A stretch of DNA of 64,000 nucleotides, from NCBI GenBank assembly GCA_046091905.1, contig JBJTCN010000076.1, forward strand, positions 2,597-66,596, in the 5' to 3' direction. Source of the stretch: Candidatus Nanopelagicaceae bacterium (GTDB taxonomy: Bacteria; Actinomycetota; Actinomycetes; Nanopelagicales; Nanopelagicaceae). Numbering within the stretch: the stretch's first letter is position 1; every line of letters starts with the position of its first letter. The notes under the pieces were generated by a model. It ran no database searches and was not told the DNA's origin. It was given only the letters and a program-made list of their open reading frames with translations. Of this stretch, positions 547 through 37,612 are shown in pieces. The position numbers and the translations under genes were made by a program.

Positions 547-1157
547 GTCGCACCTGCCTTTGCGCTCTCACCATAAGGTGCCAGACCAACCGTTTCAGCG
601 GGTGGCCCTGATTGAATCAATTTAAGTGTTAACGGAGTTGAATCTCCCGGAATTCGATTATGAATCTCTTTGATTAAAGGTGCATAAGGAGATTTCATAT
701 CTCTAAGTGCAATCTCAAGAAGTGCGATACCGGCTTTATGCTCTTGTAATAGCGCAAAACCAGCTGGGGATGCGGTAACTGCGATAAATTCAAGCAAAAT
801 TGGAAGGTAATCATCTAGCTCTTCGCCAGATGTTGCCCAACCTTCGGCTGCAAATACTTGTTTGAAATCAAGGAGTGCCATGCCACGTCTACGGGTATCC
901 CCATTTAAATAATAAGAGAGATATAGGCAGGCGCGACGTTTGCGATCAAAGAGATTCACGTATTCAACTTGTAGATCCATAATGGATTTGCTTGAAAAGT
1001 GCGTAATTAATTGCCAGAGCACCGATTTGGTCTCAGGTGAGAATGAATCCAATTCGAATTCGATCTCTTCAAATGATTTCAACCAATCTCGTTCTGGATA
1101 TCGAAGTGCAACCGAGGCTGTTGCAAATAAGCGCCGAGTTTCTAAATCAATCATCAC
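540..1157 (-). CDS. narJ: Nitrate reductase molybdenum cofactor assembly chaperone NarJ
   Basis: 205-aa ORF between narH and narI. It has a 4-nt overlap with the narH stop. Size and position fit NarJ. Confidence 0.85.
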   Translation of the reverse strand: MMIDLETRRLFATASVALRYPERDWLKSFEEIEFELDSFSPETKSVLWQLITHFSSKSIMDLQVEYVNLFDRKRRACLYLSYYLNGDTRRRGMALLDFKQVFAAEGWATSGEELDDYLPILLEFIAVTASPAGFALLQEHKAGIALLEIALRDMKSPYAPLIKEIHNRIPGDSTPLTLKLIQSGPPAETVGLAPYGESAKAGATC

Positions 1158-11303: not shown

Positions 11304-12224
11304 ATGCACGAATCTGTATTAGCCGAATATGTCCGCGATGGAGTTATTGAATCAAAACATTTTGGCCATCTAATCGCGCTGGATTCATCTGGCGCGCCAG
11401 CATTAATTAAAGGAGATCCAAATGAACTTATTTACCCTCGTTCGGCGATTAAGTCGATTCAAACTAGTGCGATGGTTCGGGCGGGTTTGGATCAAGAGGT
11501 ACGGCATCTTGCTATTATCTGCGCTAGTCACTCTGGTTCGCGGACGCATACAGAAGTGGCTCTTGAAATCCTCAAGACCGCTGGATTAGATGAAACTGCA
11601 CTTCAATGCGTAAAAGATCGCCCAATTGGCGTGCAGGAACGTAAAGATTGGGGCGATCAAGAACCTACTCGCCTGGCCATGAATTGCAGCGGAAAACATG
11701 CCGGAATGCTGGCTACCTGCGTGGTAAATAATTGGCTGATTGAAAGTTATTTAGATCCAACTCATCCACTGCAAGTTGCAATTCGCGAAGAGTTGGAAAC
11801 TTTATCGGGCGAAAAAGTTGCCAAAATTTCAGTTGATGGCTGCGGTGCGCCGCTATTTTTACTTTCTTTACGTGGTTTAGCAAATGCCTTTCACAAATTA
11901 GCTACATCAAATGATCCGATTCATAAGAAAGTTATCGCCGCTTGTTTAGCTTTTCCAGAATTGGTTGCTGGCATTGGTCGCGGAGATACTGAATTGATGA
12001 AACAAGTACCTGGGCTATTTATGAAAAATGGTGCAGAAGGAGTGCAGAGTGCTTTCTATAAAGATGGCAGCACTGTGTTTTTCAAAGTTTCAGATGGCGC
12101 AGAACGCGCACATCAAGTTATTTTGCAAGATGCTTTTGGCAAAATGGGAATCCACTTTGATGTTAAGCACCCAGAAGTTTTAGGTGGCGGCAAAGTTATT
12201 GGCGAAATTAGGGCGGTTAAATGA
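11304..12224 (+). CDS. Asparaginase (asparaginase II family, Rhizobium etli type)
   Basis: Motifs HSGSRTH and CSGKHAGMLATC. 306 aa. Confidence 0.7.
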   Translation: MHESVLAEYVRDGVIESKHFGHLIALDSSGAPALIKGDPNELIYPRSAIKSIQTSAMVRAGLDQEVRHLAIICASHSGSRTHTEVALEILKTAGLDETALQCVKDRPIGVQERKDWGDQEPTRLAMNCSGKHAGMLATCVVNNWLIESYLDPTHPLQVAIREELETLSGEKVAKISVDGCGAPLFLLSLRGLANAFHKLATSNDPIHKKVIAACLAFPELVAGIGRGDTELMKQVPGLFMKNGAEGVQSAFYKDGSTVFFKVSDGAERAHQVILQDAFGKMGIHFDVKHPEVLGGGKVIGEIRAVK

Positions 12225-20034: not shown

Positions 20035-20517
20035 ATGTCATTTAAGGTCGGCGAAACAGTTGTTTATCCTCATCACGGCGCAGCTCTAATCGAAGCAATC
20101 GAAAAACGTGTGATTAAAGGTGAAGAGAAGACCTACTTAGTTTTAAAGGTAGCTCAGGGCGATTTAACAGTCCGAGTACCAGCAGATAATGTGGATTTAG
20201 TTGGTGTACGAGATGTAGTTGATTCCGCAGGACTTGATCGCGTATTTAACGTATTGCGCCAGCCATACACCGAAGAACCAACCAACTGGTCACGTCGTTA
20301 CAAAGCAAATCTAGAGAAATTGGCTTCTGGCGATGTTATTAAAGTCGCAGAGGTAGTGCGCGATCTTTATCGTCGCGATTTAGACCGCGGTCTTTCAGCT
20401 GGCGAGAAGCGTATGTTGGCTAAGGCAAAGCAGATTTTGGTTTCAGAGTTAGCGTTGGCAGAACGCACCGATGAGGAAAAAGCAGCAACTATCCTCGACG
20501 AAGTACTTGCCTCATAA
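20035..20517 (+). CDS. carD: RNA polymerase-binding transcription factor CarD
   Basis: [20 protein letters not shown]... is the typical CarD/CdnL N-terminus. 160 aa. Confidence 0.95.
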
Positions 20518-21151
20518 ACTTTTAGTAATAGTTACGGTTGGCAGTCCTTTAGCGCTTCAACCGCTTAATGGAAGCAATCTTTTATCCGCAGCGCTTTCAT
20601 CTGCCTATCAATTCTCTGCCGAAACCAGCATTTCAAATCAATTATATGTCGCGGCGCAAGATTTAAATGCTGTTCGAGAAGCTACTAAAGGTATATCAAT
20701 AAATTTTTTGGACCTTGAATGTGACCCTAATAATCCAATTGAATTGGTAAAAGCAATTCAACCTTTGGAATTTGAAATGGTGGCAATACATGATGCGCAG
20801 CGGCCATTAACGCGAAGTACCCAATTTCATCGCACTTTAGAAGGTTTGTTTGGTTGCGATGCAGTTCGACCAACCATGGCATTTACGGAAACTTTGAAGG
20901 CGGTAAATGAATCATCTGAGCTTACGCACACAATTGATCGGACCAAATTTCGTCGCATTTCGAGCCCAGAAATTATCCGTCGCACAGTAATCGATTTTTC
21001 AGGAGGCGAAAGTAGTTGGATGGTTCCGTTAGTCAAGGAAGCTCGACTTTCAGAAGTAGAAGCAGATCCTGATTCAATTAGAATCAACAACGCAGAAGAA
21101 ATTACGCTGATGGAGGCTTTCCTTCATTGGCAACAGAAGATCGCTAAATAA
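20471..21151 (+). CDS. Degenerate IspD-like protein at the ancestral ispD position (pseudoenzyme or decaying gene)
   Basis: Keeps IspD-like blocks ([32 protein letters not shown]). The CTP-binding loop AAGxGxR...K is replaced by [10 protein letters not shown]. The only canonical start I found upstream of the IspD-like region is the ATG at 20471, which overlaps carD by 47 nt. Confidence 0.55.
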
Positions 21152-21161
21152 TTTAGATAAA

Positions 21162-21449
21162 TTACTTACCAAAGAGATTTTTGATCTCTTCCCAGAACTT
21201 CCGTGGCTGACCAAGGGCTTGACCTGGAAATTCAGTAAAAGTCTTCGTAGGGTTGCGCCAAAAGCGGCGCAATAACCTAAATGGCTTTGTTTTAATTCGA
21301 TGCTCTAAATCTTTTACATAAGCAACGCGTAAATCATCAGGCTCATGTTGCACCTTTGTTTTACAAACAGTGCAGGTTGTAGATGCAAGCAAACGGCCGG
21401 CATAAACAAGTTCGTGCACAGTTTCGGTCTTGCAATGTGCGCATTCCAA
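21162..21449 (-). CDS. Zinc-ribbon protein, function unknown
   Basis: CAHC...CTVC pairs in the first 33 residues and a basic C-terminus. Starts 22 nt downstream of ispD on the same strand. Confidence 0.5.
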   Translation of the reverse strand: MECAHCKTETVHELVYAGRLLASTTCTVCKTKVQHEPDDLRVAYVKDLEHRIKTKPFRLLRRFWRNPTKTFTEFPGQALGQPRKFWEEIKNLFGK

Positions 21450-21471: not shown

Positions 21472-22164
21472 TTAATCTTTATACCCCCTCTTTGCTAGAA
21501 CGTGTTCGGCAATCGCCAAATCCTGCGGATAGGTAATCTTTACATTTGTCGGTTCGCCTGTCACGGAGTGCGTCTTAATTGATGGAAAGTATCTCTCAAT
21601 ACAGGCACCCGTGTCAGTACCGGTAAATGAATCTTCAGCAGCTTTCAAGTAAGCCGATAGTAGCTCTTTGGCAATAAAACCTTGCGGGGTTTGTACGCGA
21701 ACTACTGGCACGTTCTGTTTAATATCCATTTCAATTGGCTCAACAGTAATCGTCGGAATCGCACCGCCATGTGTAACTGCTTCGGTAGCAATCTCTTTAA
21801 ATAAAGTAGGAGTGGCAAGCGGACGAGCACCATCGTGAATAAGCACCACATCGATTTCGCCCGAATCGATTCCGCTTCGTAAATGTATTAGCGCCTGATA
21901 TTCAGATTCATGGCGGGTTGCACCACCATAAACAATCTCAACTTTTAATTGCGGTACTTCGCGAGCTAAAACTTCTTTAGCCATCGCTTCATCATCTGGG
22001 TGAATAACCAAGACCAGGCGCGCTTTGTTAAAAGGCTTTGCTGCATTAACAAGAGATCTACTAATAATTCGACGGCCAGATAGGGGTAGCCAAACCTTGT
22101 TGGTACTGTGGCCAAAACGGGAACCAGAACCGGCTGCTAAAACAACGACAGCTGTGCGTTTCAT
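21472..22164 (-). CDS. ispD: 2-C-methyl-D-erythritol 4-phosphate cytidylyltransferase IspD (intact motifs)
   Basis: VVVLAAGSGSRFGHSTNKVWLPL, IHDGARPL, RVQTPQGF and VKITYPQDL are all present. Confidence 0.85.
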   Translation of the reverse strand: MKRTAVVVLAAGSGSRFGHSTNKVWLPLSGRRIISRSLVNAAKPFNKARLVLVIHPDDEAMAKEVLAREVPQLKVEIVYGGATRHESEYQALIHLRSGIDSGEIDVVLIHDGARPLATPTLFKEIATEAVTHGGAIPTITVEPIEMDIKQNVPVVRVQTPQGFIAKELLSAYLKAAEDSFTGTDTGACIERYFPSIKTHSVTGEPTNVKITYPQDLAIAEHVLAKRGYKD

Positions 22165-22190: not shown

Positions 22191-22454
22191 ATGTGGCTTC
22201 CGAAGAGATTACGTAAGTCCACCGACCCTGTGGCAAAAGCTGCAGAGATAAAGGCTAAATTCGAGGCGAAGCGTAAACAACAGGGGTTATTTACTCCAGC
22301 ACAAGAAGCGTTGATGGATGAACTTGGTTTAAAGCCAGGAAGTAAAAAATCTGAATCGAAATCGAAACGTATTAAAAATACGAAAGCGCGCATTCCTCTG
22401 ACCGCGCGCCAACGTAAATTAGCTGAAGAACTTGGACTTATAAAGCCCGATTAA
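22191..22454 (+). CDS. Hypothetical small basic protein with an internal two-fold repeat
   Basis: 87 aa. Repeats LFTPAQEALMDELGLKP and LTARQRKLAEELGLIKP. It is the only + strand ORF inside the island, and coding status is uncertain. Confidence 0.35.
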   Translation: MWLPKRLRKSTDPVAKAAEIKAKFEAKRKQQGLFTPAQEALMDELGLKPGSKKSESKSKRIKNTKARIPLTARQRKLAEELGLIKPD

Positions 22455-22470
22455 GTTCGATTAATAACTC

Positions 22471-23763
22471 TTAGGCGTAGGTAAGTCCCATCGCATCTTG
22501 CTGGCGACGTAACTTCACGATTAATGAATCTTCATTTAGTTCAACATGATCGTAAGTTAATAGCTCGCCAGCTTTAATTGCTCTAACAATTGTGGCACCT
22601 TGAACCAAACCAATTGGTACCAAATTATCTCGCTTGGCATCCTTTGCAACATCTGCATAACCACGGACTGTGTATCCACCGATACCATCAATCTTGTCGC
22701 CAGGATTTAGTTCCTTCTTGGTCATACATACAACTTCTGCCATCAAACTTTCAGCATAAAGTGAAGATTCGCGATCGATAACAGCGCGTGCAACTGTCAT
22801 TGGAGCCTCTACCGACGCTAAGTGATATGGACGGTATAGCGCGAAATATGGACCAGGGCCCATTGAAAGGTATGACATTTCATGTGCAACATAAGGTGAA
22901 TCTGTTCGAACAATTACGAAAACACCTGGTGCTACATCGCCGGTGCAGTAATCAACTACACCTGGGCGATCTAAAACGCCGCCATCTGCTTGCAATGCGA
23001 AAGTCTCTTGCAGAGTTTTAACTGAAGAAGCCGGGCCATACATACCGCGCTTAGATAGCTCTAGCCCAGTGGTATTTGCCAGCGCTACCATCTCAGTCAT
23101 GGTCTTTGAACCATCAGTGAAAGAGCAGAGCATCTTCGGATTCATCTTCTTTGCATTTGCGCGATCACGTACCGTATCTGGATTGCTAAATGGTTCGAAG
23201 GGATTATTTTTACCTTTTCCAGCACAGACAATTTCAAAATTCAAATCTCTCGCAAAATCAACTAAAACTTTGGCCTCAACTGGTTCATCACCATGGCAGA
23301 CCGCATAGATTGCGCCGTTTTCGACCGCTTTCTTATTTAGCAATGGCCCAATAGTTACATCCATTTCCACGTTTAGCACAGCGATATCTTTCTTCGCCTC
23401 TAGCGCGCTATAGGTGATTTGCGCCCCGATATCCGGAACGCCAGTGCACTCAACAATAAAATCGATAGCTTCTAGGTCGCTAAGGAACTCGGTAGTGGTA
23501 GTTCCGGCTGATTTTCCTTCATTTAGAGCTTTTGCAATCTCTTTGGCGTCATTGCTGATGACTACATCAGAGACGCCAAGATCTTTAAATAGCTCAGTGA
23601 TGCGATTGGTATCAATATCAATAACTAAACGAACTGAAAGTCCTTGCATACGATGAACTTGGTTTCCAAAGCCACGCCCCATCTGACCCGCACCAACTAA
23701 GCCAATTCGAACGTCATGACCCAATTGTTTTGCGTGTTCTAATAATTTGTGACTGTATGCCAC
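22471..23763 (-). CDS. NAD(P)-dependent oxidoreductase of the COG4091 / SAF-domain family (DRL-like, 'predicted homoserine dehydrogenase')
   Basis: N-terminal Rossmann motif IGLVGAGQMGRG. 430 aa. The middle block GKGKNNP...DGSKTM.EM and the C-terminal SAF-like block (IKAGELLTY) are typical of the family that includes Brucella DRL. Family assignment is from motif recognition and no search was run. Confidence 0.6.
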   Translation of the reverse strand: MAYSHKLLEHAKQLGHDVRIGLVGAGQMGRGFGNQVHRMQGLSVRLVIDIDTNRITELFKDLGVSDVVISNDAKEIAKALNEGKSAGTTTTEFLSDLEAIDFIVECTGVPDIGAQITYSALEAKKDIAVLNVEMDVTIGPLLNKKAVENGAIYAVCHGDEPVEAKVLVDFARDLNFEIVCAGKGKNNPFEPFSNPDTVRDRANAKKMNPKMLCSFTDGSKTMTEMVALANTTGLELSKRGMYGPASSVKTLQETFALQADGGVLDRPGVVDYCTGDVAPGVFVIVRTDSPYVAHEMSYLSMGPGPYFALYRPYHLASVEAPMTVARAVIDRESSLYAESLMAEVVCMTKKELNPGDKIDGIGGYTVRGYADVAKDAKRDNLVPIGLVQGATIVRAIKAGELLTYDHVELNEDSLIVKLRRQQDAMGLTYA

Positions 23764-23793: not shown

Positions 23794-24159
23794 TTAGTTT
23801 CTTGCAATAATTTCGAACTTATCGCCAACATTAATTATTGGCATTGGTCGAGCTTCAATATTGGTATCACCAGGAAGCTCAGCTTCATTTAATCCATTTG
23901 CCTTTAAATCTAAGTGCCCCAAATTTAATAAATTTTCAGAAACAACCGAACCAACTGCAAGCACATTGAATTCTTCATTGTTAATTCGTATTAAATCGCC
24001 AACTAATGGAGCTCGTTGGCTAATTTCAACTTTGTGTAGTACCGAAAAGTCGTGAAGCTCTTCGGGAGCGCCTTCGCCAAAGAACACAAGAATTCCTTGA
24101 TCTCGAAAATCTGATACTAATTCTCCGACTGCGGTGACCGTAGTTGAATAAACGACCAT
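23794..24159 (-). CDS. srlB: PTS glucitol/sorbitol-family EIIA component
   Basis: 121 aa. FGEGAPEEL...AVGSVVSENLLNLGHLDLKANGLNEAELPG is colinear with E. coli SrlB. Confidence 0.85.
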   Translation of the reverse strand: MVVYSTTVTAVGELVSDFRDQGILVFFGEGAPEELHDFSVLHKVEISQRAPLVGDLIRINNEEFNVLAVGSVVSENLLNLGHLDLKANGLNEAELPGDTNIEARPMPIINVGDKFEIIARN

Positions 24160-24530
24160 TACGCCGGCTTGATGTTTTCGGGCTTTACTCCAGATACGAA
24201 GAGATCTTTGGTGATAAACATCGCAAGTGGCCCAGCAGGGCTAGCCGCGTGGATATCAACTGTAAGCACTTTCTTCATTGGATAAACACCGACGCGGGCA
24301 GTACCGCCGCAGTCAATAACTGCAACTGCAATCTCATCAAATGGCTTTGAAGATTTGAAACCATCGAATGGCTCGCCGCCAGTGGCATCTGCAATTGCTT
24401 GTGCCACCGGATGTATTCCACCACCTGTTACAGAATAAATATATTTCTTTTTATCGGTTGGCAGGACTTCAAGTGGGCCGCCCCAGCCACCTTTACCTGC
24501 TTCAATAATGACTTTTTTATAATTTCCCAT
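24159..24530 (-). CDS. srlE: PTS glucitol-family EIIB domain protein (equivalent to the N-terminal third of SrlE)
   Basis: GKGGWGGPLEV and AVAVIDCGGTARVGVYP (phospho-Cys motif). It has its own AGGAG RBS. Confidence 0.85.
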   Translation of the reverse strand: MGNYKKVIIEAGKGGWGGPLEVLPTDKKKYIYSVTGGGIHPVAQAIADATGGEPFDGFKSSKPFDEIAVAVIDCGGTARVGVYPMKKVLTVDIHAASPAGPLAMFITKDLFVSGVKPENIKPA

Positions 24531-24585
24531 TGTAACTCCTAGATATTTACCTTAGTAATTGAGTGAATCTTACGTACTAAGTAAT

Positions 24586-24621
24586 CGAGGGCCAAAGTGA
24601 ATTTCTCCACTCTGGCCCTCG
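24586..24621 (-). promoter_or_regulatory. Strong intra-operon hairpin between the EIIC2 and EIIB genes
   Basis: CGAGGGCCAAAGTG-(8 nt)-CACTCTGGCCCTCG, 13/14 bp paired. It starts 8 nt after the EIIC2 stop. No U-tract follows on the minus strand. Confidence 0.5.
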
Positions 24622-24629
24622 AATACTCT

Positions 24630-25178
24630 TTATTTACTTACGGAGTAAAGTCCAAAGCTTGCAAAGTAAGCAATTACTACTGAAAGCGGACCGGTTACCA
24701 AGCGGCTAAATAGAACCGCAGGCACACCAACTTCAACAGTCTCTGGTTCAGCTTCGCCAAGAGCGAGACCTACCGGAATAAAGTCGCAACCAACCTGTGG
24801 GTTGATTGCAAATAGTGCTGGTAATGCGTATTGGGCAGGAATATTTCCCTTGCCGATTTCCACACCAAGCAGAGTTCCAACGATCTGTGCAATAACAGCT
24901 CCTGGTCCAAGCAATGGAGATAGAACTGGAAGAGCACAAACGATTGAGATTAATAGCAAACCTGGAAGTGAAGAAGCGGAACCCTTGATTCCCTTTGCAA
25001 TCCAGTCGCCGACACCGGTTGTAAGAATTAAACCGATGATGAAAGAGATAAACGCCATAAATGGAATGACGTTACGAATTACTGTATCAACAGTGTCACG
25101 ACCAGCCTGATAGAGAGTTCCAACTACTCCACCAACGCTGCGGCCGATTCTTGTAAGAAATGCGCTAATGCCACCCAT
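24630..25178 (-). CDS. srlE: PTS glucitol-family EIIC2 membrane component (equivalent to the C-terminal part of SrlE)
   Basis: FLTRIGRSVGGVVGTLYQAGRDTVDTVIRNVIPFMAFISF resembles the SrlE membrane half. It has its own GGAGG RBS. Confidence 0.8.
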   Translation of the reverse strand: MGGISAFLTRIGRSVGGVVGTLYQAGRDTVDTVIRNVIPFMAFISFIIGLILTTGVGDWIAKGIKGSASSLPGLLLISIVCALPVLSPLLGPGAVIAQIVGTLLGVEIGKGNIPAQYALPALFAINPQVGCDFIPVGLALGEAEPETVEVGVPAVLFSRLVTGPLSVVIAYFASFGLYSVSK

Positions 25179-25182
25179 GTTC

Positions 25183-25779
25183 TTATGCCTCCTTCTTCGC
25201 CATCATGCGAGCGGTAATCCACTCAGTCACGATGCCGCGAATAAAGATAACTACTAGGCCAACAAGTAAGTAACGAACTGCTAGGTCTCCAAGACCTAAA
25301 CCAAGTTGCGTAATACCTGTTGCAATACCTACATACACGAACAATTCGCCTGGGTTTGCGTGAGGGAAAATTCCCAGGATTGGGTGAACGAATGAAACAG
25401 CAGAATCGTAGAAAGCTGGCTTGTAACGCTCTGGTAAGAAGCGTCCCATTGTGTATGCCATTGGGTTTGTTAATACGAATACCGCTACGAAAGGAAGAAT
25501 GATGTAACGAACTGGGTACCACTGGATACCTGGTCGCGCAGCAGCCTTACCTAAGTTTTCAATCTTCTCAGGTCCGATGATTCGAACGAGAGCGTTTACA
25601 GCAGTTAGCAGCACAACAAGAGTTGGAAGAATTCCGCCCATAAGTGAGAGCAGAACTGATCCACCTTTGTTGAAAACTTTAATAAAGTCTTCAGCTGCCG
25701 TAGCCAATGCGCCAAGTACGCCGGTTGGCTTATCAACGGTTACCTCCGCTAAGCGGTAACCAACTGATAGTAGGTTCAA
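25183..25779 (-). CDS. srlA: PTS glucitol-family EIIC1 component
   Basis: GRFLPERYKPAFY...FPHANPGELFVYVGIATG matches SrlA. TTG start with GGAGG 6 nt upstream. Confidence 0.85.
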   Translation of the reverse strand: MNLLSVGYRLAEVTVDKPTGVLGALATAAEDFIKVFNKGGSVLLSLMGGILPTLVVLLTAVNALVRIIGPEKIENLGKAAARPGIQWYPVRYIILPFVAVFVLTNPMAYTMGRFLPERYKPAFYDSAVSFVHPILGIFPHANPGELFVYVGIATGITQLGLGLGDLAVRYLLVGLVVIFIRGIVTEWITARMMAKKEA

Positions 25780-25860: not shown

Positions 25861-26277
25861 CTATTCCGCATCGTCAGATTTACTGCGATTAATATGAGCA
25901 TCGATATGTTCTGCCGCCATCCGTGTAGCGTCAGTTATCTTCTGCTTTCTATTCGCAGCAACTCGGTCGCCCGAGATTATTTCTTTGATGTGGAATCCTT
26001 TGTAATCAGTAAAGGGCTTACCTTTTGCCATTACTGTGATGCCGGTAAGTAGTAATCCATCGGAAACTACTCCGTTTTTATCTGCTAAAAGTGCAACATA
26101 TGAGCGACCACCGCGATAGCGCCTGCCACCTACTCCGATTGCGACAATACCGCCGTCGATGCTTTTACGAAGGTCTGCTAACTGTTTCTGAAAACGATTG
26201 GCTTGCCGCCAAGCTAGAAATAACTGGAAAGCCCAGGCAATACCTAGAACTGTAAATAGCGTACCTAGACCGCTCAT
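25861..26277 (-). CDS. gutM: GutM-like glucitol operon activator
   Basis: N-terminal TM segment plus AWRQANRFQK, and a GutM-like length if started at MSGLGTLF (ATG at 26275-26277, ATGA overlap with the sorC stop). The ORF-track start at 26328 is unlikely. Confidence 0.65.
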   Translation of the reverse strand: MSGLGTLFTVLGIAWAFQLFLAWRQANRFQKQLADLRKSIDGGIVAIGVGGRRYRGGRSYVALLADKNGVVSDGLLLTGITVMAKGKPFTDYKGFHIKEIISGDRVAANRKQKITDATRMAAEHIDAHINRSKSDDAE

Positions 26278-27272
26278 GCTGTTCGTGCCTCCGAGCCAGA
26301 TAAAAATTTCAAAATAGCATTTGCACAAGCCAAATCTAAAATTAATTGATCAACTAATTTGCTGCGAGCAGCTCCTACAACTCCAAGCACTTTATCTGCA
26401 CCTGTAGCCACACCAATTACCCGAGGAATTTTTCTAACTTCATCTAAAGAAAGCCCTATGACTCGGCTATCAATGGCAGTTGAAAGGATTTTGCCTTGCG
26501 CATTATAAAAACGCGCTGCGATATCACCTGCCATATTTCTAAAAATAGATTCACGTTCAGACTTGGGTAAGCCAAATTCCTCGACCAACATCTCAGAAGA
26601 TGTAGATCCTGCAGAGCCAATGCCTACCAGTGCAACGTCCGCTTTACGTGCCACATTTAAAACTCTAGTAACTGCTGGTTCGGCCATTAACGAATCGCGA
26701 GTTTTCTGTGAGCTCACTACAACTGGTGCGCTAAAAGGTATGAAATCTGCATTTAAGTTACGAGCAAGTGTGCGGCCTACTTCTTCAGCGCTTACCGATG
26801 TAATCACATTGGACATAGAGCCCATTAATTGAGTAACCTTCAAACCGGGAAGGCTATCTTTGCGACAATTAACTACAGTAGCTTCAAGACCGCGCCCCCA
26901 AGAAATCGCAATAGTTTGATTGGCCCTTAAACCTTTTTGCAATGTTTGCGCAGCGCTTCTACCTACGGCATTTAAAGCTAAGTCATTTCTATCAGGGGCG
27001 ATAACTTGTATTTCATCAATTCCAAGCTTTTCGATTAATTGTTGCGCTAGATAATCATGTCGAGATGTAGGCGCAATGATTCGAATTTCAACGTAACCTA
27101 AACGTTTCGCCGCGGTAAGCATTCTGGAGATATTTGAACGAGAAGTATTTAATTTAGAAGCAACTTGATCTTGTGAAAGCTCATCTTCGTAATAAAGGCG
27201 CGCGGCTTGCAAAATAAGCTCGGTTTCGCGCTGTTTCATCAAGATCCGATCTACCTGATCTACTTTGACCAA
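26274..27272 (-). CDS. SorC-family sugar-binding transcriptional regulator
   Basis: LQAARLYYEDELSQDQVASKLNTSRSNISRMLTAAKRLGYVEIRI HTH region, plus a sugar-phosphate binding domain. Confidence 0.85.
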   Translation of the reverse strand: MVKVDQVDRILMKQRETELILQAARLYYEDELSQDQVASKLNTSRSNISRMLTAAKRLGYVEIRIIAPTSRHDYLAQQLIEKLGIDEIQVIAPDRNDLALNAVGRSAAQTLQKGLRANQTIAISWGRGLEATVVNCRKDSLPGLKVTQLMGSMSNVITSVSAEEVGRTLARNLNADFIPFSAPVVVSSQKTRDSLMAEPAVTRVLNVARKADVALVGIGSAGSTSSEMLVEEFGLPKSERESIFRNMAGDIAARFYNAQGKILSTAIDSRVIGLSLDEVRKIPRVIGVATGADKVLGVVGAARSKLVDQLILDLACANAILKFLSGSEARTA

Positions 27273-27306
27273 GTTTTAACCTTAGTTGTCCTGCGGGTTG
27301 GCGATA

Positions 27307-27377
27307 GTGTGCTCCAGCACACAGTTGCGGTCAAGGACATTTGTGAGCGTTTTTGTGAATTACTGGCACGTACGTGC
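27307..27377. promoter_or_regulatory. Two perfect palindromes between the E2 stop and the sorC start
   Basis: GTGTGCT-CC-AGCACAC (27307-27322) and GCACGTACGTGC (27366-27377). Confidence 0.35.
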
Positions 27378-27380
27378 AGA

Positions 27381-28421
27381 TTAAATGTGGGCAATGAGGT
27401 GATCTAACAAGTTGGCTCCATCATAAAAATCAAGCGCTCGCAGGTCGATAGTCAGTGAAAGCGAGAGCGCGCCCTGCAAATCCACGCCGACATTTAGCGC
27501 CGTGCTTTGATTTGGAAAGAGCACTGGCCTATTGGATGCCATCTTGTAACTTGTTAAATCAAAGATGGTGGTGGTGGCGCCGTTTAACATTGCAAGTGGA
27601 ACTTTGCCATTCATAGCTTGTTCGGTAGTTGTTGCGACTAATTGGATCAGAGAAGTAAAATCCAATTGGTCTGGGTTTTTAAATACGGGAAGAGCACTTC
27701 CGTACTTTGATTCGATAATTAATGCGACACCAATATCCGTTAATCCGAAACCTCTTAAAGTCTTTGCCCAATTAGCTAGCAAGTTGGCATGCCACTCAGC
27801 TTGGCCTGCGGAGCGCTTCTGCACTGCGCGAGTAAATGAAGTCTGTGCAATGCCCAAGTTCATCTCAATGCCCTTGGCAATTAGAGCTTTATTGGCTTCT
27901 TTTCGAGCTGTGATTGCTGGGTCAATATTCGAATTTAAAACATCTTCGTAAGAGATTGTTTCAAATGGCCCCGTTGGATGAATAGTTTTCAGATCTATTC
28001 CCTTTTCCGTCGCTAGCTTTCTTGCAGCAGGTACGGATTTTGGGTTGTCATTTATAATTACAGAATCTGCTACTACAGGGGCAACTGGAGTCGCAACCAC
28101 AGGTGGAACCCCTGCCTCACTTGCATTGTCGTTGGGCTCGGACATATCGAAATCAAAACTCAAGATTTGAGATTGGGTCTCCATAATCAAAACGGGTTTA
28201 CCAATTTCCAACACTGCACCAGGTGCTGCAACCAGTTTTTCGACTATTCCATCAGCAGGAGCTTCGACTTCCATGTCAATCTTGTCGGTCATTACTTCAA
28301 AAAGCACGTCTCCAGCTTTCACTTCTTGTCCTTCAGAGACATGAAAACCAATTAATTCGCCGGTTTCCATAGTCATGCTCATCTTTGGCATCACAACTGT
28401 GTGCTTGAAACTCATCGCCAC
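27381..28421 (-). CDS. Lipoyl-domain E2-like protein with a shortened, motif-eroded acyltransferase core
   Basis: The lipoyl domain is intact ([17 protein letters not shown]) and a peripheral subunit-binding domain is present ([14 protein letters not shown]). The core has [10 protein letters not shown] where GGTFTISNLG is expected, and [10 protein letters not shown] where DHRxxDG is expected. Confidence 0.75.
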
Positions 28422-29410
28422 TGCCTAACAATTTCTACAGCAGCGGCGTAAATATCTTCAACTTGTGGTACCGCAGCTTTTTCAAGTTGTGGCGCGTAAG
28501 GAATTGGAATATTTAGACCAGCAAGTTTCTTAATAGGCGCTTTTAATGACCCAAAAACATGTGAACCTGCAACTTGGGCCACAATTTCATTGATAAAGCC
28601 ACCATGTGATGGACCTTCTTGGACGACCAATAAACGACCAGTAGAAGTTACTGAATCAAAAGTTGTCGTCATATCAAGCGGAGAAATAGTGCGCGGATCG
28701 ATAACAGTTAATTCGATACCTTCAGATGCGAGTTTCTCTGCTGCTTCGAGAGCTTTCATTACCATAATTCCGGTAGCGACTACAGTTAAATCTTTACCAG
28801 TACGAATTACTCGACTTACACCAAGTGGAATTCGGGTATTCCCTTCAGGCACAGCCTCCCAGCCAGGAGTTTTGTACAGCAATTTGTGTTCTAGGAAAAC
28901 AACTGGATTAGGATCATCAATTGCGGAAAGTAAAAGTCCTTTTGCATCTGAAGGATTTGATGGAACTACAACTTTTAATCCTGGAACATTGGTAAACCAA
29001 TTCTCAACAATCTGTGAATGTTGTGCCGCCGCACCGGTACCTGAACCTTGTGGAGCGCGGATAACCATCGGAACATGTAGCGCGCCACCTAACATAAAGT
29101 GAATTTTCGCCGCTTGGTTTGCAATTTGATCCATTGCTTGTGCAGAAAAGTCAGAGAATTGAATTTCTGCAATCGGGCGCATTCCAGAAAGTGCAGCACC
29201 TACCGCTGCTCCAATGTATCCAAGTTCAGAGATTGGTGTATCGATTACGCGATCTGCACCAAACTTTTCAAACATTCCAGCAGAGACACCAAATGCGCCG
29301 CCATAAATACCGACATCTTCGCCCATTAAAAACACTTCTGGACGTTCTTCCATGGCAATGGTCATTGCTTCACGAACAGCTTCTGCCATGGTCAACATGC
29401 GATCTGACAC
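28412..29410 (-). CDS. acoB: TPP-dependent 2-oxoacid/acetoin dehydrogenase E1 beta subunit
   Basis: MAEAVREAM...FLMGEDVG...VIDTPISE pattern. 10-nt overlap with the E2 gene. Confidence 0.8.
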
Positions 29411-30421
29411 TTACATTTTTCCAATCTGTGAATCCATGAATACCGCGGCTTCAAGACTGGCAGGATCTGACGCTTTTGCTTTAACTGATTCATTAACGGC
29501 CGCGATTATTTCATCAGTTGCTTGTTGTTGCACCGCATCCATCTCTTCCTGAGTTAAAAGGTTTTTCTCATGGAGTAGAGACATAAATTTTGCTATTGGT
29601 TCTTTAGTTTTCCACTCTTCAATTTCTTCTTTAGTGCGATAAAGATTTTTATCAGAACGAGAATGACCTTTCCAACGATAAGTCACACATTCAATTAATG
29701 TTGGGCCAGCACCGTTGCGGGCTGATTCAATAGCTCGTTCGGCTGCCTCGTAAACAGCAACTACGTCATTGCCATCAACTGTCACACCAGGAATTCCATA
29801 ACCAAGTCCGCGGTCTGCGAGATTTTCTAGCGCAAATGCTTTTTCAGTGGAATTAGACATTCCATATTTATTATTTTCACAGACAAAAACCACTGGTAAT
29901 TTCCAAATTGCGGCCATATTTGCAGCTTCATGAAAAGCACCTTCATTAAGAGCACCATCGCCGAAAAAAGAAACGGCGATTGTTTCTCTCTTCATCAATT
30001 TAGATGCAAGTGCCGCACCAGTTGCAATAGGAATTCCACCAGCCACAATTCCATTTGCGCCAAGATTGCCGGTTTCAACATCAGCAATATGCATAGAACC
30101 GCCGCGACCGCCGCAATAACCAATTTCTTTTCCTAGGAGCTCTGCAATCATGCGAGTGAGATCAGCACCTTTTGCGATGCAATGTCCGTGGCCGCGATGT
30201 GTTGAAGTAATTTGATCAGTAAGCTTAAGAGCCATACAGACTCCGGTAGGAGAGGCTTCTTGGCCAATTGATAAATGCATGGTTCCGTGCATCATTCCTC
30301 GACCAAACAAATCTTCAACAGCTTCTTCGAATTTTCGAATCTTCCACATGTAAAGAAGTGCATGTGATGCGTGCGCTTTAGAAGAGAGCGGGTGGCCAAT
30401 TAGTAAATTTTTTGTCGCCAT
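29411..30421 (-). CDS. acoA: TPP-dependent E1 alpha subunit, acetoin-dehydrogenase (AcoA) type
   Basis: HLSIGQEA, STHRGHGHCIAKG and GDGALNEGAFHEAANMAAIWKLPVVFVCENNKYGMS (TPP motif). The THRGHGHCIAKG block is characteristic of the AcoA clade, in my recollection. Confidence 0.75.
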   Translation of the reverse strand: MATKNLLIGHPLSSKAHASHALLYMWKIRKFEEAVEDLFGRGMMHGTMHLSIGQEASPTGVCMALKLTDQITSTHRGHGHCIAKGADLTRMIAELLGKEIGYCGGRGGSMHIADVETGNLGANGIVAGGIPIATGAALASKLMKRETIAVSFFGDGALNEGAFHEAANMAAIWKLPVVFVCENNKYGMSNSTEKAFALENLADRGLGYGIPGVTVDGNDVVAVYEAAERAIESARNGAGPTLIECVTYRWKGHSRSDKNLYRTKEEIEEWKTKEPIAKFMSLLHEKNLLTQEEMDAVQQQATDEIIAAVNESVKAKASDPASLEAAVFMDSQIGKM

Positions 30422-30499: not shown

Positions 30500-30778
30500 A
30501 TGAAGGAATTTCTCACAAAAGTAGGTTCTCCAGTGGGGCTACACGCCCGCCCAGCATCGCTATTTGCAAAGGCTGCTAAGGAATCTGGATGCAAAGTTTC
30601 ACTTGCCAAGATCTCTGAAGATGGCAGTGAATCTCCTTTTGTCGATGGTGTATCGTTATTAAAAATTATGGCGCTTGGAATTAAATGCGGCGAATCAATC
30701 AAAGTGCAAGTCGAAGGCGATAATGAAGAAACCGCAGCTGCGGCACTGCAAGCAATTGTTGAAAGCTCCGATCACTAA
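30500..30778 (+). CDS. ptsH: Phosphocarrier protein HPr
   Basis: Starting at the ATG at 30500 places GLHARPA with the His at residue 15. 92 aa. The longer GTG-initiated ORF from 30440 is not supported. Confidence 0.85.
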   Translation: MKEFLTKVGSPVGLHARPASLFAKAAKESGCKVSLAKISEDGSESPFVDGVSLLKIMALGIKCGESIKVQVEGDNEETAAAALQAIVESSDH

Positions 30779-30785
30779 CTTCTAT

Positions 30786-31274
30786 ATGTCTATAAATAAT
30801 CTACGAACCGGTGTCGGTGTTGATGCGCATAAGTTTGTGCAATCGGCATCTGATGGACCATGCCATTTGGCAGGTTTGGAGTGGACAGAAAGTAATCGTT
30901 TGGAAGGCCATTCAGATGGCGATGCCGCAGTGCACGCGCTATGCGATGCCGTCTTAGCAGCCGCCGGTTTAGGAGATGTGGGACAAGTATTTGGAATTGA
31001 TAAACCAGAATGGAAGGGCGCAAGTGGCACAAAGATGATTGAACATCTGCGCACTTTGATTTCGGAAAAGGGAATTGAAATCAATAATGTTTCGATTCAA
31101 ATTGTAGGAAATACACCAAAGATTGCTAAACGCCGCGATGAAGCCCAGCAAGTCTTATCAAAAGCACTTGGCGCACCTGTCACAATTGGCGCTACTACTA
31201 CTGACACAATGGGATTTACTGGACGCGGCGAAGGGGTATTCGTGATTGCAAATGCTTTGGTGCGTCTGCCATGA
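30786..31274 (+). CDS. ispF: 2-C-methyl-D-erythritol 2,4-cyclodiphosphate synthase IspF
   Basis: GVGVDAHKF...GHSDGDAAVHAL...TTTDTMGFTGRGEG. The ATG at 30786 gives the normal ~160 aa length. Confidence 0.9.
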   Translation: MSINNLRTGVGVDAHKFVQSASDGPCHLAGLEWTESNRLEGHSDGDAAVHALCDAVLAAAGLGDVGQVFGIDKPEWKGASGTKMIEHLRTLISEKGIEINNVSIQIVGNTPKIAKRRDEAQQVLSKALGAPVTIGATTTDTMGFTGRGEGVFVIANALVRLP

Positions 31275-36910: not shown

Positions 36911-37612
36911 ATGGCATTGGCATTCGTAACTGGTGGTTCGCGCGGCTTAGGCTTCGAAACTGCAAGGGCGCTAAAAGCAGCTGGCAATGAAGTGGTGCTA
37001 TTTGCGCGCAATACTGAAAAGTTGTACCAAGCAGGCAAAGAATTAAATTCGCCAATTGAATTTGTTGAGTTGTCAGATATCGTTGCCACGCGTGAAGTAT
37101 TTAAAACCGCGGTAGAAAAATATGGTGTGCCAGATATTTTGATGCTGGCTCAGGGCGTGATGTCTGATCGCTTAGCAAAAACATTAAAAACCAATGATGA
37201 AGAGTGGCGCCGGGTAATGACTATCAATTTAGATTCAGTCTTCACAATTGTTAATGAAGTTGGCGCGAAGATGGCCGAAGCCAGAAAGGGCAGAGTGATT
37301 GTTTACTCTGCTTGTTTAGGCAGAATGTCCGGCCCCGGAAATGCTGGTGGTTTAGCGCCATATCGAATTTCCAAAGCCGGAGTAAATGCTTTGGTAAGAA
37401 ATTTGGCGCATGAAACTGGACATGGATCACGAGGATTTTGGATTGATGCAATCTGCCCAAATCATTCGCGTACCGATATGGGCGGCGATAACGCGCCACG
37501 CTCAGCCCAAGAAGGTGCGGCAACTGCAGTTTGGCTTGCCACCCGAGAATTAATTCCGGGCGTTACCCAAACCGGATTACTTTGGGAAGATAACGAAGTT
37601 ATTGATTGGTGA
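36911..37612 (+). CDS. Short-chain dehydrogenase/reductase
   Basis: TGGSRGLG cofactor motif and YRISK catalytic motif. Confidence 0.8.
   Translation: MALAFVTGGSRGLGFETARALKAAGNEVVLFARNTEKLYQAGKELNSPIEFVELSDIVATREVFKTAVEKYGVPDILMLAQGVMSDRLAKTLKTNDEEWRRVMTINLDSVFTIVNEVGAKMAEARKGRVIVYSACLGRMSGPGNAGGLAPYRISKAGVNALVRNLAHETGHGSRGFWIDAICPNHSRTDMGGDNAPRSAQEGAATAVWLATRELIPGVTQTGLLWEDNEVIDW

Follow-up and report, generated by a model that had tools for sequence, protein, structure and literature searches.

The window, the 64-kb stretch of DNA analysed here, belongs to an acI/Planktophila freshwater actinobacterium. The gene under study encodes a DRL / DXR-II family oxidoreductase and lies among genes for a Gut-type PTS, a GutM-like activator, a SorC-type regulator, E1 and E2 proteins, and IspD-like cytidylyltransferases (Table 1). 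The DRL ORF starts with GTG and is preceded by a Shine-Dalgarno sequence (GAGGAA) 7 nt 5' of the start. The plus-strand reading of the same interval was ruled out because stops occur throughout its translation. An earlier note on this DNA had given the 430-aa ORF with its exact ends but missed its strand. It had also correctly placed the gene 30 nt downstream of EIIA; this is the distance between the EIIA-Gut stop codon and the DRL start on the common strand. The ORF, its family match and its gene context are far beyond chance.

Table 1. Genes of the DRL region, in window coordinates.
Gene or product	Position	Strand	Matches and features
carD, flank	20035..20517	plus	95-99% identical to carD of L003-L006, L009 and L011; Pfam CarD
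IspD', divergent IspD paralogue	20471..21151	plus	Pfam IspD 38.8 bits, profile positions 84-166
f12, small four-Cys zinc-ribbon protein	21162..21449	minus	invariant CxxC...CxxC
IspD-like cytidylyltransferase, intact	21472..22164	minus	Pfam IspD 3.7e-38; NCBIfam ispD 142.8 bits, below cutoff 181.3
Small basic protein, 87 aa, between DRL and IspD	22191..22454	plus	45-57% identity to L004, L005 and L006
DRL / DXR-II family oxidoreductase, the studied gene	22471..23763	minus	430 aa; ORF, Pfam, PDB, residues and clade in text
EIIA-Gut, SrlB-like	23794..24159	minus	121 aa; Pfam PTSIIA_gutA 1.1e-30; NCBIfam gutA; LGH motif
EIIB domain of SrlE as separate protein	24159..24530	minus	123 aa; Pfam EIIBC-GUT_N positions 2-116; NCBIfam SrlE 1-118
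EIIC2, C-terminal part of SrlE	24630..25178	minus	Pfam EIIBC-GUT_C 2.2e-48; NCBIfam SrlE 158-330
EIIC1, SrlA-like	25183..25779	minus	Pfam EII-GUT 1.2e-71; NCBIfam SrlA 225 bits, cutoff 150
GutM-like activator	25861..26328	minus	Pfam GutM 6.5e-19
SorC/DeoR(Bacillus)-type sugar-phosphate-binding regulator	26274..27272	minus	Pfam Sugar-bind 8.6e-59; NCBIfam DeoR-Bac and LsrR below cutoff
E2-like lipoyl protein, inactive-looking core	27381..28421	minus	NCBIfam: lipoyl and E3-binding parts only
E1 beta, PDH/acetoin-DH type	28412..29410	minus	NCBIfam PRK09212 358 bits, cutoff 321
E1 alpha, ThDP-binding	29411..30421	minus	NCBIfam PDH_E1_alph_y 358 bits; GDG...NN motif
HPr, divergent from E1 alpha	30500..30778	plus	NCBIfam PTS_HPr_family 72.6 bits, cutoff 47.9
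ispF, flank, MEP pathway, followed by cysS	30786..31274	plus	NCBIfam ispF 143 bits, cutoff 116

Membership of the protein in the DRL family, with a Rossmann part and a SAF part, had been proposed together with a profile search for the catalytic and SAF domains. Both domains were matched in Pfam. DRL_cat (PF21135) covers profile positions 1-163 of 164 (E=2.4e-62, 210 bits), and it is accompanied by a C-terminal SAF domain (5.4e-08) and an N-terminal Rossmann domain (NAD_binding_3, 2.7e-05). The motif GLVGAGQMGRG is present. Both Brucella DRL structures, 3UPY and 3UPL, are matched full-length at E~1e-96, and residues 12-425 align colinearly to residues 18-435 of 3UPY. Domain content and colinearity with Brucella DRL thus confirm the assignment. 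The identity to Brucella DRL, computed from the family alignment, is 39.6%. The protein has the same length as its close homologues (P0001: 91% identity, 100% coverage), and a sequence lookup found no record identical to it.

In the DXR-II family, Lys191, Lys193 and Thr229 (Brucella numbering) anchor fosmidomycin or the substrate, Gly121 is DXR-II-specific, and Thr229 is diagnostic of DXR-II (PMC3847144). The earlier note had suggested an alignment with Brucella DRL to compare the pocket residues, and in this alignment K191, K193 and T229 are kept. They correspond to K183, K185 and T221 of the window protein, and G121 corresponds to G113. D167, E168, D225, E232, R320, Y322, H323 and E328 are further conserved in the family alignment, so that the phosphonate anchors and the invariant acidic and His residues are common to both proteins. 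Thr is absent from position 229 in all 33 distant DLO-like representatives, in agreement with the published diagnostic. His250 is replaced by Tyr in every acI sequence (Tyr242 in the window). Across 76 DXR-II-clade sequences, this position is H in 49, Y in 20, N in 4, I in 2 and F in 1, and these mixed counts indicate that the site is variable within the clade. Val351 of Brucella DRL is Met in acI. In an NJ tree of 110 sequences, the window DRL falls together with Brucella DRL and the DRLs of every scanned locus, with the low-identity representatives apart; Brucella DRL is nearer to the DRLs of kinase-type clusters than to those of PTS-type clusters. This placement, made by NJ tree only and with outgroups that were called DLO from their residues, points to membership of the window protein in the DXR-II clade, apart from DLO1/DLO2.

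The order of the PTS genes is permuted, with EIIC2 encoded before EIIB, as is the case in acI, Nocardioidaceae, Nocardia, and Chloroflexus. HPr holds the same position in L005, L006, L007 and L010 of the comparison loci. No SDR-type sorbitol-6-P dehydrogenase (SrlD/GutD) was found among the ORFs between HPr and carD. The sole SDR of the window (36911..37612, plus strand) was rejected as SrlD, since it is generic FabG-like and lies 13 kb off. A motif search with crude patterns detected no ptsI (EI) in the cassette or in the 64-kb window. Relatives carry ptsI after E2, and a junction alignment with L010 confirmed its absence from that spot. The GC content of the cassette is equal to that of the flanks, and recent horizontal transfer was therefore rejected. 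Rfam gave no riboswitch or other RNA at E<=0.1 in the 19-32 kb region and the DRL-IspD spacer, and promoter and terminator scans of the same regions gave matches no more frequent than in shuffled sequence.

The E1 alpha protein scores below the NCBIfam equivalog cutoff of 394, and in the PDB it comes closest to human PDH E1 alpha (1e-60). E1 beta also resembles DXS, more weakly, in NCBIfam. Cluster-linked E1 proteins are 51-80% identical across phyla, as against 44-46% identity to the paralogous pair in L027. By sequence, the E1 proteins of these clusters form a coherent subfamily of their own, always embedded with PTS and DRL. In the E2-like protein, the motif DHRxxDG has become DLRALD; all acI copies read D-L-R/N and have lost the catalytic His. 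The motif is intact in 18 non-acI cluster E2 proteins. Without this His in the acI E2, acetyl-CoA could be formed by oxidative cleavage only if a housekeeping E2 took part. The idea that a single E2-truncating deletion produced both the short E2 and the missing ptsI was rejected because the C-terminus of E2 aligns with relatives all the way to the end; the His loss common to all acI copies also counters it. No dedicated E3 (lipoamide dehydrogenase, lpd) was found in the window by motif search with crude patterns. The absent ptsI and the His-less E2 had escaped the earlier note.

The intact IspD-like enzyme has a full-length fold with an N-terminal CTP-binding loop (VVLAAGSGSRFG...K), HDGARP, and a C-terminal VKITYPQDL. 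With the cluster IspDs of Nocardia and L029 it shares 44-46% identity. The best match of the cluster IspD-like genes is the ispD model, with NCBIfam scores of 156-157 bits for the Nocardia and L019 proteins and 229 bits for a Lachnospiraceae protein, against the cutoff of 181.3. The ispF-cysS flank is kept in L003 and L005. No dxr, dxs, ispG or ispH was found in the window by motif search with crude patterns.

DRL neighbourhoods were compared in 80 species-representative genomes with a DRL relative. The genome scan used an 11-sequence alignment as the query, which replaced a 29-sequence alignment that was too diverse. Gut PTS genes are present at 48 of the 80 loci, and Gut-EIIA lies directly 5' of DRL on the same strand at 45 of them, with a median gap of 78 nt. 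This arrangement supports the earlier proposal that DRL stands in the place of sorbitol-6-P dehydrogenase. The EIIA-DRL pairing is seen in at least four phyla (Actinomycetota, Bacillota, Chloroflexota, Spirochaetota, and others), and two distinct PTS gene orders both accompany DRL. SorC genes are present at 56/80 loci, E1 alpha-beta (resembling acetoin/pyruvate dehydrogenase E1) at 27/80, in many cases along with E2 and E3, and E3 at 12/80, mainly in Bacilli and Nocardia. Brevibacillus has a compact operon, E1a-E1b-E2-E3-SrlA-SrlE-SrlB-DRL-SorC. The Nocardia cluster reads SorC-GutM-PTS-DRL-E1a-E1b-E2-HPr-EI-IspD-f12-IspD'-E3, and the Chloroflexus genome L068 carries a full PTS-E1-DRL cluster. 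IspD is adjacent in 24 of the 32 Actinomycetota, as well as in Lachnospiraceae, Treponema, and L064; the Actinomycetota clusters additionally carry IspD-like, IspD' and zinc-ribbon genes. E1 is missing within 10 kb in about half of the PTS+DRL loci. The PTS+DRL loci of gut Firmicutes without E1 contain genes for a class II aldolase, a TIM-like protein and UPF0047, or for a transketolase. A second set of DXR-II genes, nearest to Brucella DRL, is located in SIS-ZnADH-DRL-FGGY kinase clusters.

Six acI loci (L001, L003, L011-L013 and L015) have DRL-IspD between IspD' and ispF, and the PTS is absent. In the acI genomes without the cassette, DRL and IspD overlap by 4 nt; the PTS and the E1/E2 module are gone, and DRL-IspD-IspD' is kept. 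Cassette-bearing and cassette-less acI interleave in the NJ tree. Since all acI-clade outgroups are PTS-linked, the PTS-less state appears to be derived. The retention of DRL-IspD-IspD' after loss of the PTS and E1/E2 suggests that DRL is probably also the housekeeping DXR in acI. DRL would have survived deletion of the module because, with IspD and IspD', it has probably also been turned into a housekeeping DXP-to-MEP-to-CDP-ME step. A DXR-I motif search over all retrieved loci gave a single spurious 104-aa match. The E1αβ/E2(/E3), IspD-like, IspD' and zinc-ribbon partners, and the PTS-less DRL-IspD of acI, are absent from the earlier note.

The gene content suggests a pathway for 2-C-methyl-D-erythritol (ME). 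The Gut-type PTS would import ME and yield MEP inside the cell. DRL would oxidise and rearrange MEP to DXP, which is the DXR reaction reversed. E1 alpha-beta could then split DXP, a methyl ketol, into glyceraldehyde-3-P and an acetyl group on lipoyl-E2 that gives acetyl-CoA, with E3 recycling the lipoamide. The IspD-like enzyme may divert part of the MEP to isoprenoid synthesis, forming a salvage branch. SorC, which is predicted to bind sugar phosphates, and GutM would render the operon substrate-inducible. We hold with about even confidence that DRL interconverts DXP and MEP and ends an inducible Gut-PTS cluster for ME, with the reverse-DXR step, cleavage by E1, and salvage. The broader reading, in which the Gut-PTS/DRL/E1-E2-E3 cluster is a widespread dedicated ME pathway and catabolism or salvage is the ancestral role of DXR-II, is more tentative and falls somewhat short of an even chance. 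Other branched or short polyols are possible substrates.

The product of ME transport by the sorbitol PTS of Salmonella is reportedly MEP. Acetoin and pyruvate dehydrogenase complexes act by cleaving CH3-CO-CHOH-R or CH3-CO-COOH units; as a methyl ketol, DXP has this kind of structure. The DXR equilibrium favours MEP, and reverse flux would therefore need a strong pull. The Salmonella sorbitol PTS is reported to transport ME (Testa et al. 2004), which provides a precedent for a Gut-family PTS that accepts this substrate. DXP-to-MEP activity was demonstrated by complementation for 11 DXR-II members, and 4 DLO members failed; the complementing proteins include those of Chloroflexus (mevalonate only) and Finegoldia (no isoprenoid pathway) (PMC3847144). 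The full cluster of the Chloroflexus genome L068 also counts in favour of the ME reading. Against it, the aldolase/TIM-like/UPF0047 or transketolase neighbours suit a pentose-phosphate-type product better than DXP, and the SIS-ZnADH-DRL-FGGY kinase clusters are not obviously accounted for. The absence of ptsI from the window, the His-less acI E2s, and the score of the cluster IspD below the ispD trusted cutoff also weigh against it.

These neighbours lead to another possible substrate. The PTS may import some other short or branched alditol, and DRL may be a polyol-phosphate dehydrogenase or oxido-isomerase that feeds the pentose-phosphate pathway; the DXR activity of the complementation assays would then be incidental turnover of the methyl analogue. 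The imported alditol could be erythritol (erythritol-4-P to erythrose-4-P), apiitol (apiitol-4-P to xylulose-5-P, in a reverse-DXR-like reaction), or a pentitol. The aldolase, TIM-like isomerase, UPF0047 and transketolase genes of the E1-less PTS+DRL clusters fit this account, and the clusters of DRL with Zn-ADH, SIS isomerase and FGGY kinase resemble known tetritol/pentitol pathways. MEP is one methyl apart from erythritol-4-P and one hydroxyl apart from apiitol-4-P, and little activity would be enough for complementation. However, the E1 alpha-beta/E2/E3 sets, found at 27/80 loci including the window, would be useless for E4P or Xu5P and suit a methyl ketone. The Actinomycetota clusters have, as an integral part, IspD-like genes whose best match is the MEP cytidylyltransferase model. 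Moreover, 11/11 tested DXR-II members complemented, the 4 DLO members did not, and the substrate-anchoring residues are invariant. We consider this alditol account unlikely, though of some weight.

The remaining explanations separate the PTS from DRL. DRL-IspD could be a housekeeping MEP operon of acI, beside which an ordinary hexitol PTS island and an unrelated acetoin/pyruvate dehydrogenase were inserted, the PTS product being handled by an enzyme encoded elsewhere. The overlapping DRL-IspD of the PTS-free sister acI genomes, the opposite-strand gene that parts DRL from IspD where the PTS is present, and the lack of ptsI in the window are in line with such an insertion. It is nevertheless improbable, given that EIIA immediately precedes DRL in 45 of the 80 species, spread over at least four phyla and two PTS gene orders, and that for some of these organisms the literature rules out a housekeeping DRL (Chloroflexus, MVA only). 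Furthermore, the cassette has no other dehydrogenase, the acI outgroups are all PTS-linked, and the base composition of the cassette matches its flanks. Alternatively, E1 alpha-beta could act like DXS on pyruvate and glyceraldehyde-3-P to give DXP, which DRL would convert to MEP for activation by IspD, an alternative entry to the MEP pathway with the PTS unrelated. E1 beta does resemble DXS, and PDH E1 variants (aceE mutants) have been described that form DXP in vivo (PMC3424233). This is the cleavage of the proposed ME pathway run backwards, and it counts in favour of that pathway as well. DRL and IspD act one after the other in the MEP pathway, their genes overlap in acI without the PTS, and the acI E2 is catalytically dead by motif. 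We regard this bypass as very improbable, because PTS-less acI drop E1 alpha-beta but retain DRL-IspD, and because intact E2 and E3, unneeded for a DXS-type reaction, go with E1 outside acI. In addition, no partners are as constant as SorC/GutM regulation and the PTS genes, and the cluster is present in MVA-only Chloroflexus.

Several known systems share parts of this locus. The DRL / DXR-II of Brucella abortus (Sangari et al. 2010; 3UPL, 3UPY; PMC3847144) has the same three-domain architecture, DRL_cat domain and clade. Accounts of it are confined to a biosynthetic role in place of DXR, whereas the window DRL closes a PTS operon that also has E1/E2 genes. We found no mention of PTS gene context in the published DXR-II family analyses. 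The enterobacterial gut/srl operon (srlAEBD-gutM-srlR) shares the SrlA, SrlE and SrlB homologues and GutM with the window; the window has DRL in the place of the SDR-type SrlD, and its SrlE is split and permuted. SrlR of the gut/srl operon is DeoR-type, whereas the window regulator is SorC-type. The window also adds E1 alpha-beta/E2, HPr, IspD-like, IspD' and zinc-ribbon genes, and ptsI is missing. AcoABCL and the heterotetrameric PDH E1 have in common with the cluster an E1 alpha with the ThDP motif, E1 beta, and lipoyl E2, with E3 in 12 loci; the cluster E1 differs from AcoABCL as a separate subfamily. The acI E2 without its catalytic His can be likened to the eukaryotic E3-binding protein. 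D-apionate oxidoisomerase of D-apiose catabolism (Carter et al. 2018) is reported to combine NAD+-dependent oxidation with a branched-to-linear retro-aldol/aldol rearrangement, and as such may be a precedent for DXR chemistry in the degradative direction. Its protein family is not that of DRL, its substrate is a sugar acid rather than a phosphate ester, and neither a PTS nor E1/E2 goes with it.

For 15 years, DXR-II has counted as a redundant duplicate of an essential enzyme that is a drug target, and the redundancy had no explanation. The authors of the 2013 family analysis could give no reason for it and saw no ecological or metabolic distribution pattern (Carretero-Paulet et al. 2013, PMC3847144), and according to a 2026 review none has emerged. 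In open-access papers and bioRxiv, no earlier account of methylerythritol catabolism or of a link between DXR-II and a PTS was found, and a review of fosmidomycin was silent on DRL. The neighbourhood supplies a testable hypothesis, and the DRL-PTS pairing may explain the scatter of "redundant" DXR-II across bacteria. If the ancestral role is catabolism or salvage, the occurrence of DXR-II in bacteria that have DXR-I, only the mevalonate pathway, or no isoprenoid pathway would be explained. It would also become clear how lineages such as acI, and on a wider view perhaps Brucella, came to recruit DXR-II as the only DXR. If the ME reading is true, it would define a new catabolic pathway, a new substrate class for the Gut-family PTS, and DXP as a new substrate of acetoin-type dehydrogenases. 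In that case, the acI genomes would show a catabolic enzyme recruited as a housekeeping step in genome-streamlined freshwater Actinobacteria. The ME reading would also bear on fosmidomycin resistance and on whether exogenous methylerythritol might let cells bypass MEP-pathway inhibitors.

The cluster also flags three uncharacterised conserved partners, namely IspD', the four-Cys zinc-ribbon protein, and the small basic protein. IspD' occupies the canonical ispD position beside carD and lacks the CTP-binding glycine-rich loop (P-loop-less), as seen in an alignment with its homologues of L003, L005, L023 and L024. The f12 zinc-ribbon family is found in 17 loci, from acI, Nocardia, Mycolicibacterium, Streptomyces, Bacilli, and Rubrobacter. 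The 87-aa basic protein is encoded on the opposite strand within the DRL-IspD spacer and has no Pfam match. It contains an internal repeat, xxAxQxxLxxELGL, and is found only in PTS-bearing acI genomes.

The gene under study encodes DRL, a 430-aa oxidoreductase. It has a GTG start codon with a GAGGAA ribosome-binding site 5' of it, and begins 30 nt after the stop codon of the Gut-family EIIA gene. The ends, the length and this gap are as the earlier note had them, and the minus strand is added here. Profile searches matched the DRL catalytic domain (Pfam, E=2.4e-62), the SAF domain and a homoserine-dehydrogenase-type NAD-binding domain; no NCBIfam model puts a name on the protein. Over its full length it matches the crystal structures of Brucella abortus DRL, 3UPY and 3UPL (E~1e-96); in the family alignment it is 39.6% identical to this enzyme. 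The phosphonate anchors of DRL/DXR-II are Lys191, Lys193 and Thr229, and Gly121 and the dimer residues Arg320 and Tyr322 are also named (PMC3847144). All six are kept, as are the family-invariant Asp167, Glu168, Asp225, Glu232, His323 and Glu328. His250 is replaced by Tyr here and in every sequence of acI, the freshwater Nanopelagicaceae/Planktophila lineage, and Val351 is replaced by Met. In a neighbour-joining tree, the protein forms one clade with Brucella DRL, and low-identity representatives fall outside. In the latter, residues 191 and 193 are variable and residue 229 is never Thr; differences at these three positions separate DXR-II from the DLO1 and DLO2 families (PMC3847144). Judged by domains, structural alignment, residues and tree placement, the assignment to the DRL family proposed in the earlier note is correct, and this known family gains a new member.

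The minus-strand gene order is E1 alpha-E1 beta-E2-like-SorC-type-GutM-SrlA-SrlE C-half-SrlE N-half-EIIA-DRL, with an HPr gene divergent from E1 alpha. DRL is followed by a short gene on the opposite strand, then by an intact gene of IspD type and by one for a small zinc-ribbon protein. The block is flanked by carD and a divergent IspD paralogue (IspD') on one side and by ispF-cysS on the other. Base composition is even over the block and its flanks, and no Rfam elements or convincing terminators or promoters were found at the locus. The SDR-type sorbitol-6-P dehydrogenase of classical gut/srl operons (SrlD) is absent from the cassette, that is, from the Gut-type PTS and E1/E2 block attached to DRL. 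The window encodes a single SDR, a generic protein of FabG type at a distance of 13 kb.

Coordinates of the features discussed (L numbers denote DRL-bearing loci from other genomes)
Feature	Window position	Strand	Other loci	Remark
narH	in 1154-6387	minus		respiratory nitrate reductase (NCBIfam, 777 bits)
863-864-aa conserved acI protein	12221-14812	plus	L003:13612-16206	conserved flank, upstream of GT4 glycosyltransferase
IspD'	20471-21151	plus	L003:8234-8779; L005:12688-13356; L023:16032-16817; L024:13622-14260
Zinc-ribbon protein	21162-21449	minus	e.g. L024:13304-13615; L043:11486-11845; L087:9800-10156
Small basic protein	22191-22454	plus	L004:2465-2743; L005:11290-11619	antisense, between DRL and IspD
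DRL	22471-23763	minus
SrlE, split and permuted	24159-25178	minus		EIIC2 ahead of EIIB, 99 nt between
SrlE N-terminal half (EIIB)		minus		separate gene
SrlE C-terminal half (EIIC2)		minus		separate gene
SrlA (EIIC)		minus		separate gene
E2-SorC intergenic	27273-27380			ptsI precisely absent
E2	27381-28421	minus	L005-L007, L009, L010	DHRxxDG changed to D-L-R/N..D
E1 alpha	30421-29411	minus		first gene of the series
Transketolase			L070:11397-13403	Pelosinus, directly after DRL (one case)
DRL between two PTS sets			L056:7986-14166	Anaerostipes hadrus, single DRL, two complete Gut-type sets, one SorC per set

The DRL alignment was scanned against one genome per species, yielding 80 loci onto which the window proteins were mapped and in which flanking ORFs were clustered. 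Gut-PTS genes are present in 48 of the 80, and in 45 a co-oriented EIIA gene lies directly 5' of DRL, at a median distance of 78 nt. SorC is found in 56 loci, lipoamide dehydrogenase in 12, EI (the ptsI product) in 16 and HPr in 15. E1 alpha and E1 beta occur together in 27, all except two of which also have the PTS, and full-length E2 with an intact DHRxxDG motif is found outside acI. Among the taxa are Actinomycetota (acI, Aquiluna, Nocardioidaceae, Nocardia, Mycolicibacterium, Streptomyces, Microbacteriaceae, Propionibacteriaceae and Rubrobacter), Bacillota (Bacilli, Clostridia, Negativicutes and Halanaerobium), Chloroflexota (Chloroflexus and Caldilineaceae) and Spirochaetota. Nocardia has the contiguous order SorC-GutM-SrlA-SrlE-EIIA-DRL-E1a-E1b-E2-HPr-EI-IspD-Zn ribbon-IspD'-E3, and a Chloroflexus genome (L068) has the full cluster SorC-E1a-E1b-E2-GutM-PTS-DRL-HPr-EI. 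Cluster-linked E1 subunits share 51-80% identity with the window E1 across phyla, whereas a second E1 pair of L027 shares only 44-46%; the linked E1 is thus a dedicated subfamily. Fourteen loci have neither the PTS nor the second gene context discussed below. Eight of these have less than 3 kb of upstream sequence (EIIA is at the contig edge in two), and in five, from acI or Nitriliruptorales, IspD is the only partner of DRL. That DRL occupies the slot of sorbitol-6-P dehydrogenase, as the earlier note held, is therefore a conserved design and not an accident of one genome. DRL accompanies both of two distinct PTS gene orders. EIIC2 precedes EIIB in acI, Nocardioidaceae, Kineosporia, Alkalispirochaeta and Chloroflexus, and EIIB precedes EIIC2 instead in Firmicutes, Microbacteriaceae and Propionibacteriaceae.

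The closest homologues of the window DRL (70-91% identity) come from acI Actinobacteria (Candidatus Nanopelagicaceae/Planktophila), whose contigs fall into two states. Cassette-bearing relatives have the gene order of the window, mostly with ptsI between E2 and SorC, and occur in two neighbourhoods, carD...ispF-cysS (L005, L006, L009 and L010) and 6PGD/G6PD (L007). Cassette-less relatives have only DRL, IspD and IspD', with a 4-nt IspD/DRL overlap. These lie in one or other of the two neighbourhoods just named (L003 and L001, with L011-L013 and L015 as further examples). The states are interleaved in the DRL tree, where L003 lies by the window, L004 and L008, L011 by L009 and L010, and L001 by L007. 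In every outgroup (Aquiluna, Nocardioidaceae, Kineosporia, Nocardia and others), DRL is linked to the PTS. The simplest history would be an ancestral PTS-linked cluster from which one module was lost repeatedly. The lost module comprises HPr, E1 alpha-beta, E2, EI, SorC, GutM, the PTS, the zinc-ribbon protein and the small basic opposite-strand protein; DRL, IspD and IspD' are never lost. This retention argues for a PTS-independent function of DRL in acI. Most simply, it would be a putative housekeeping DXP-to-MEP step (1-deoxy-D-xylulose-5-P to 2-C-methyl-D-erythritol 4-phosphate), because DRL and IspD catalyse consecutive steps of the MEP pathway and ispF adjoins.

Two peculiarities mark the cassette of this window. 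The gene ptsI, placed between E2 and SorC in L005-L007, L009 and L010, is cleanly missing: what follows the stop codon of E2 aligns straight onto the SorC-upstream region of relatives, and tblastn found no EI-like sequence anywhere in the 64 kb. The PTS of this strain cannot be energised unless ptsI is encoded elsewhere in the genome. Furthermore, all acI cluster E2 proteins have the catalytic His replaced by Leu and carry a 13-residue deletion just ahead of the motif, which is intact in 18 non-acI cluster E2 proteins. Across these sequences, the His loss is lineage-wide and no one-off mutation. E2 is the least conserved cassette protein within acI (41-58% identity), and its lipoyl and E3-binding domains are kept. 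It may be a lipoyl carrier that relies on a housekeeping E2, in the manner of the eukaryotic E3-binding protein, or else it may be decaying.

For DXR-II, conversion of DXP to MEP has been demonstrated: a dxr mutant is complemented by eleven members, including those of mevalonate-only Chloroflexus and of Finegoldia, which has neither pathway, a result left unexplained by the authors (PMC3847144). A 2026 review still finds no pattern in DXR-II distribution. 2-C-methyl-D-erythritol (ME) is reported to be transported by the Gut-family (sorbitol) PTS in Salmonella (Testa et al. 2004), and E. coli PDH E1 (aceE) can mutate to yield DXP (PMC3424233). The cluster E1 is a homologue of DXS (NCBIfam), and the best model match of the IspD-like proteins is MEP cytidylyltransferase. 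The E1 enzyme class handles CH3-CO- units, and the product of PTS transport of ME in Salmonella is reportedly MEP. The Gut PTS, DRL, IspD-like protein and E1 are thus each independently tied to MEP or DXP, and we therefore propose an ME pathway. The PTS would take in ME as MEP, and DRL would run the DXR reaction in reverse, from MEP to DXP. The ThDP-dependent E1 would split DXP into glyceraldehyde-3-P and a lipoyl-bound acetyl, then acetyl-CoA, and IspD would salvage MEP in a side branch. We infer all of these steps; gene content, residue conservation and synteny are what the analysis shows.

An anabolic reading, with E1 acting as DXS, is contradicted since E1 disappears along with the PTS, comes with intact E2 and E3 outside acI, and belongs to a cluster present in a mevalonate-only organism. 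Pure juxtaposition of DRL and PTS is likewise contradicted by EIIA-DRL adjacency across phyla. About half of the PTS+DRL loci have no E1 within 10 kb, and gut Firmicutes clusters hold a class II aldolase, a TIM-like protein and UPF0047 in its place and, in one case, a transketolase. All of these would fit if the product were, for instance, erythrose-4-P or xylulose-5-P. The E1-less clusters, if not others, may therefore have erythritol-4-P, apiitol-4-P or a pentitol phosphate as their native substrate. Such E1-less loci are L044, L051, L074, L079 and L080 (also L032 and L034), and in L074 the three genes sit between DRL and srlA.

DXR-II also has a second context, SorC/RpiR-SIS-ZnADH-DRL-472-aa protein-FGGY kinase-ABC, in which the 472-aa protein has no Pfam family. 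It is seen in L040, L046, L048, L061, L067, L073, L078, L082, L086 and others (Clostridia, Chloroflexota and one Bacteroidota). Brucella DRL groups nearest these kinase-type genes. This context is catabolic-looking and beyond the reach of the ME model. For the PTS-linked cluster and its implied pathway, no description was found in open-access papers and bioRxiv; it is a PTS-linked polyol operon with downstream chemistry without precedent. If the ME reading is true, it would be a new catabolic pathway and answer the puzzle of DXR-II distribution.

The zinc-ribbon protein, with four Cys, is a partner in 17 loci of four lineages. The family (~105 aa, no Pfam match) has an invariant CxxC...CxxC and a conserved DLxxRIxTKPxRL segment. 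Its gene is kept in E1-type PTS-DRL clusters and in acI is lost along with the PTS module. In IspD' the N-terminal CTP-binding loop (AAGxGxR...K) is missing and HDxxRP and TxDR are retained. Its gene occupies the canonical ispD position by carD in acI, and in Nocardia and Mycolicibacterium IspD', the cluster IspD and the zinc-ribbon gene form a triad. IspD' may be a pseudo-enzyme partner of IspD. The small basic protein (87-109 aa, no Pfam match) has an internal repeat, LFTPAQEKLRDELGL / LTARQRKLAEELGL, and is limited to PTS-bearing acI genomes. Because its gene is antisense, DRL and IspD are separate transcription units.

Farther out, the 863-864-aa protein has no precomputed Pfam match for its L003 counterpart. 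A 1223-aa ORF adjoining narH is probably narG; a Nar island of this kind is a peculiarity of Planktophila vernalis (2025 paper, PMC12817590).
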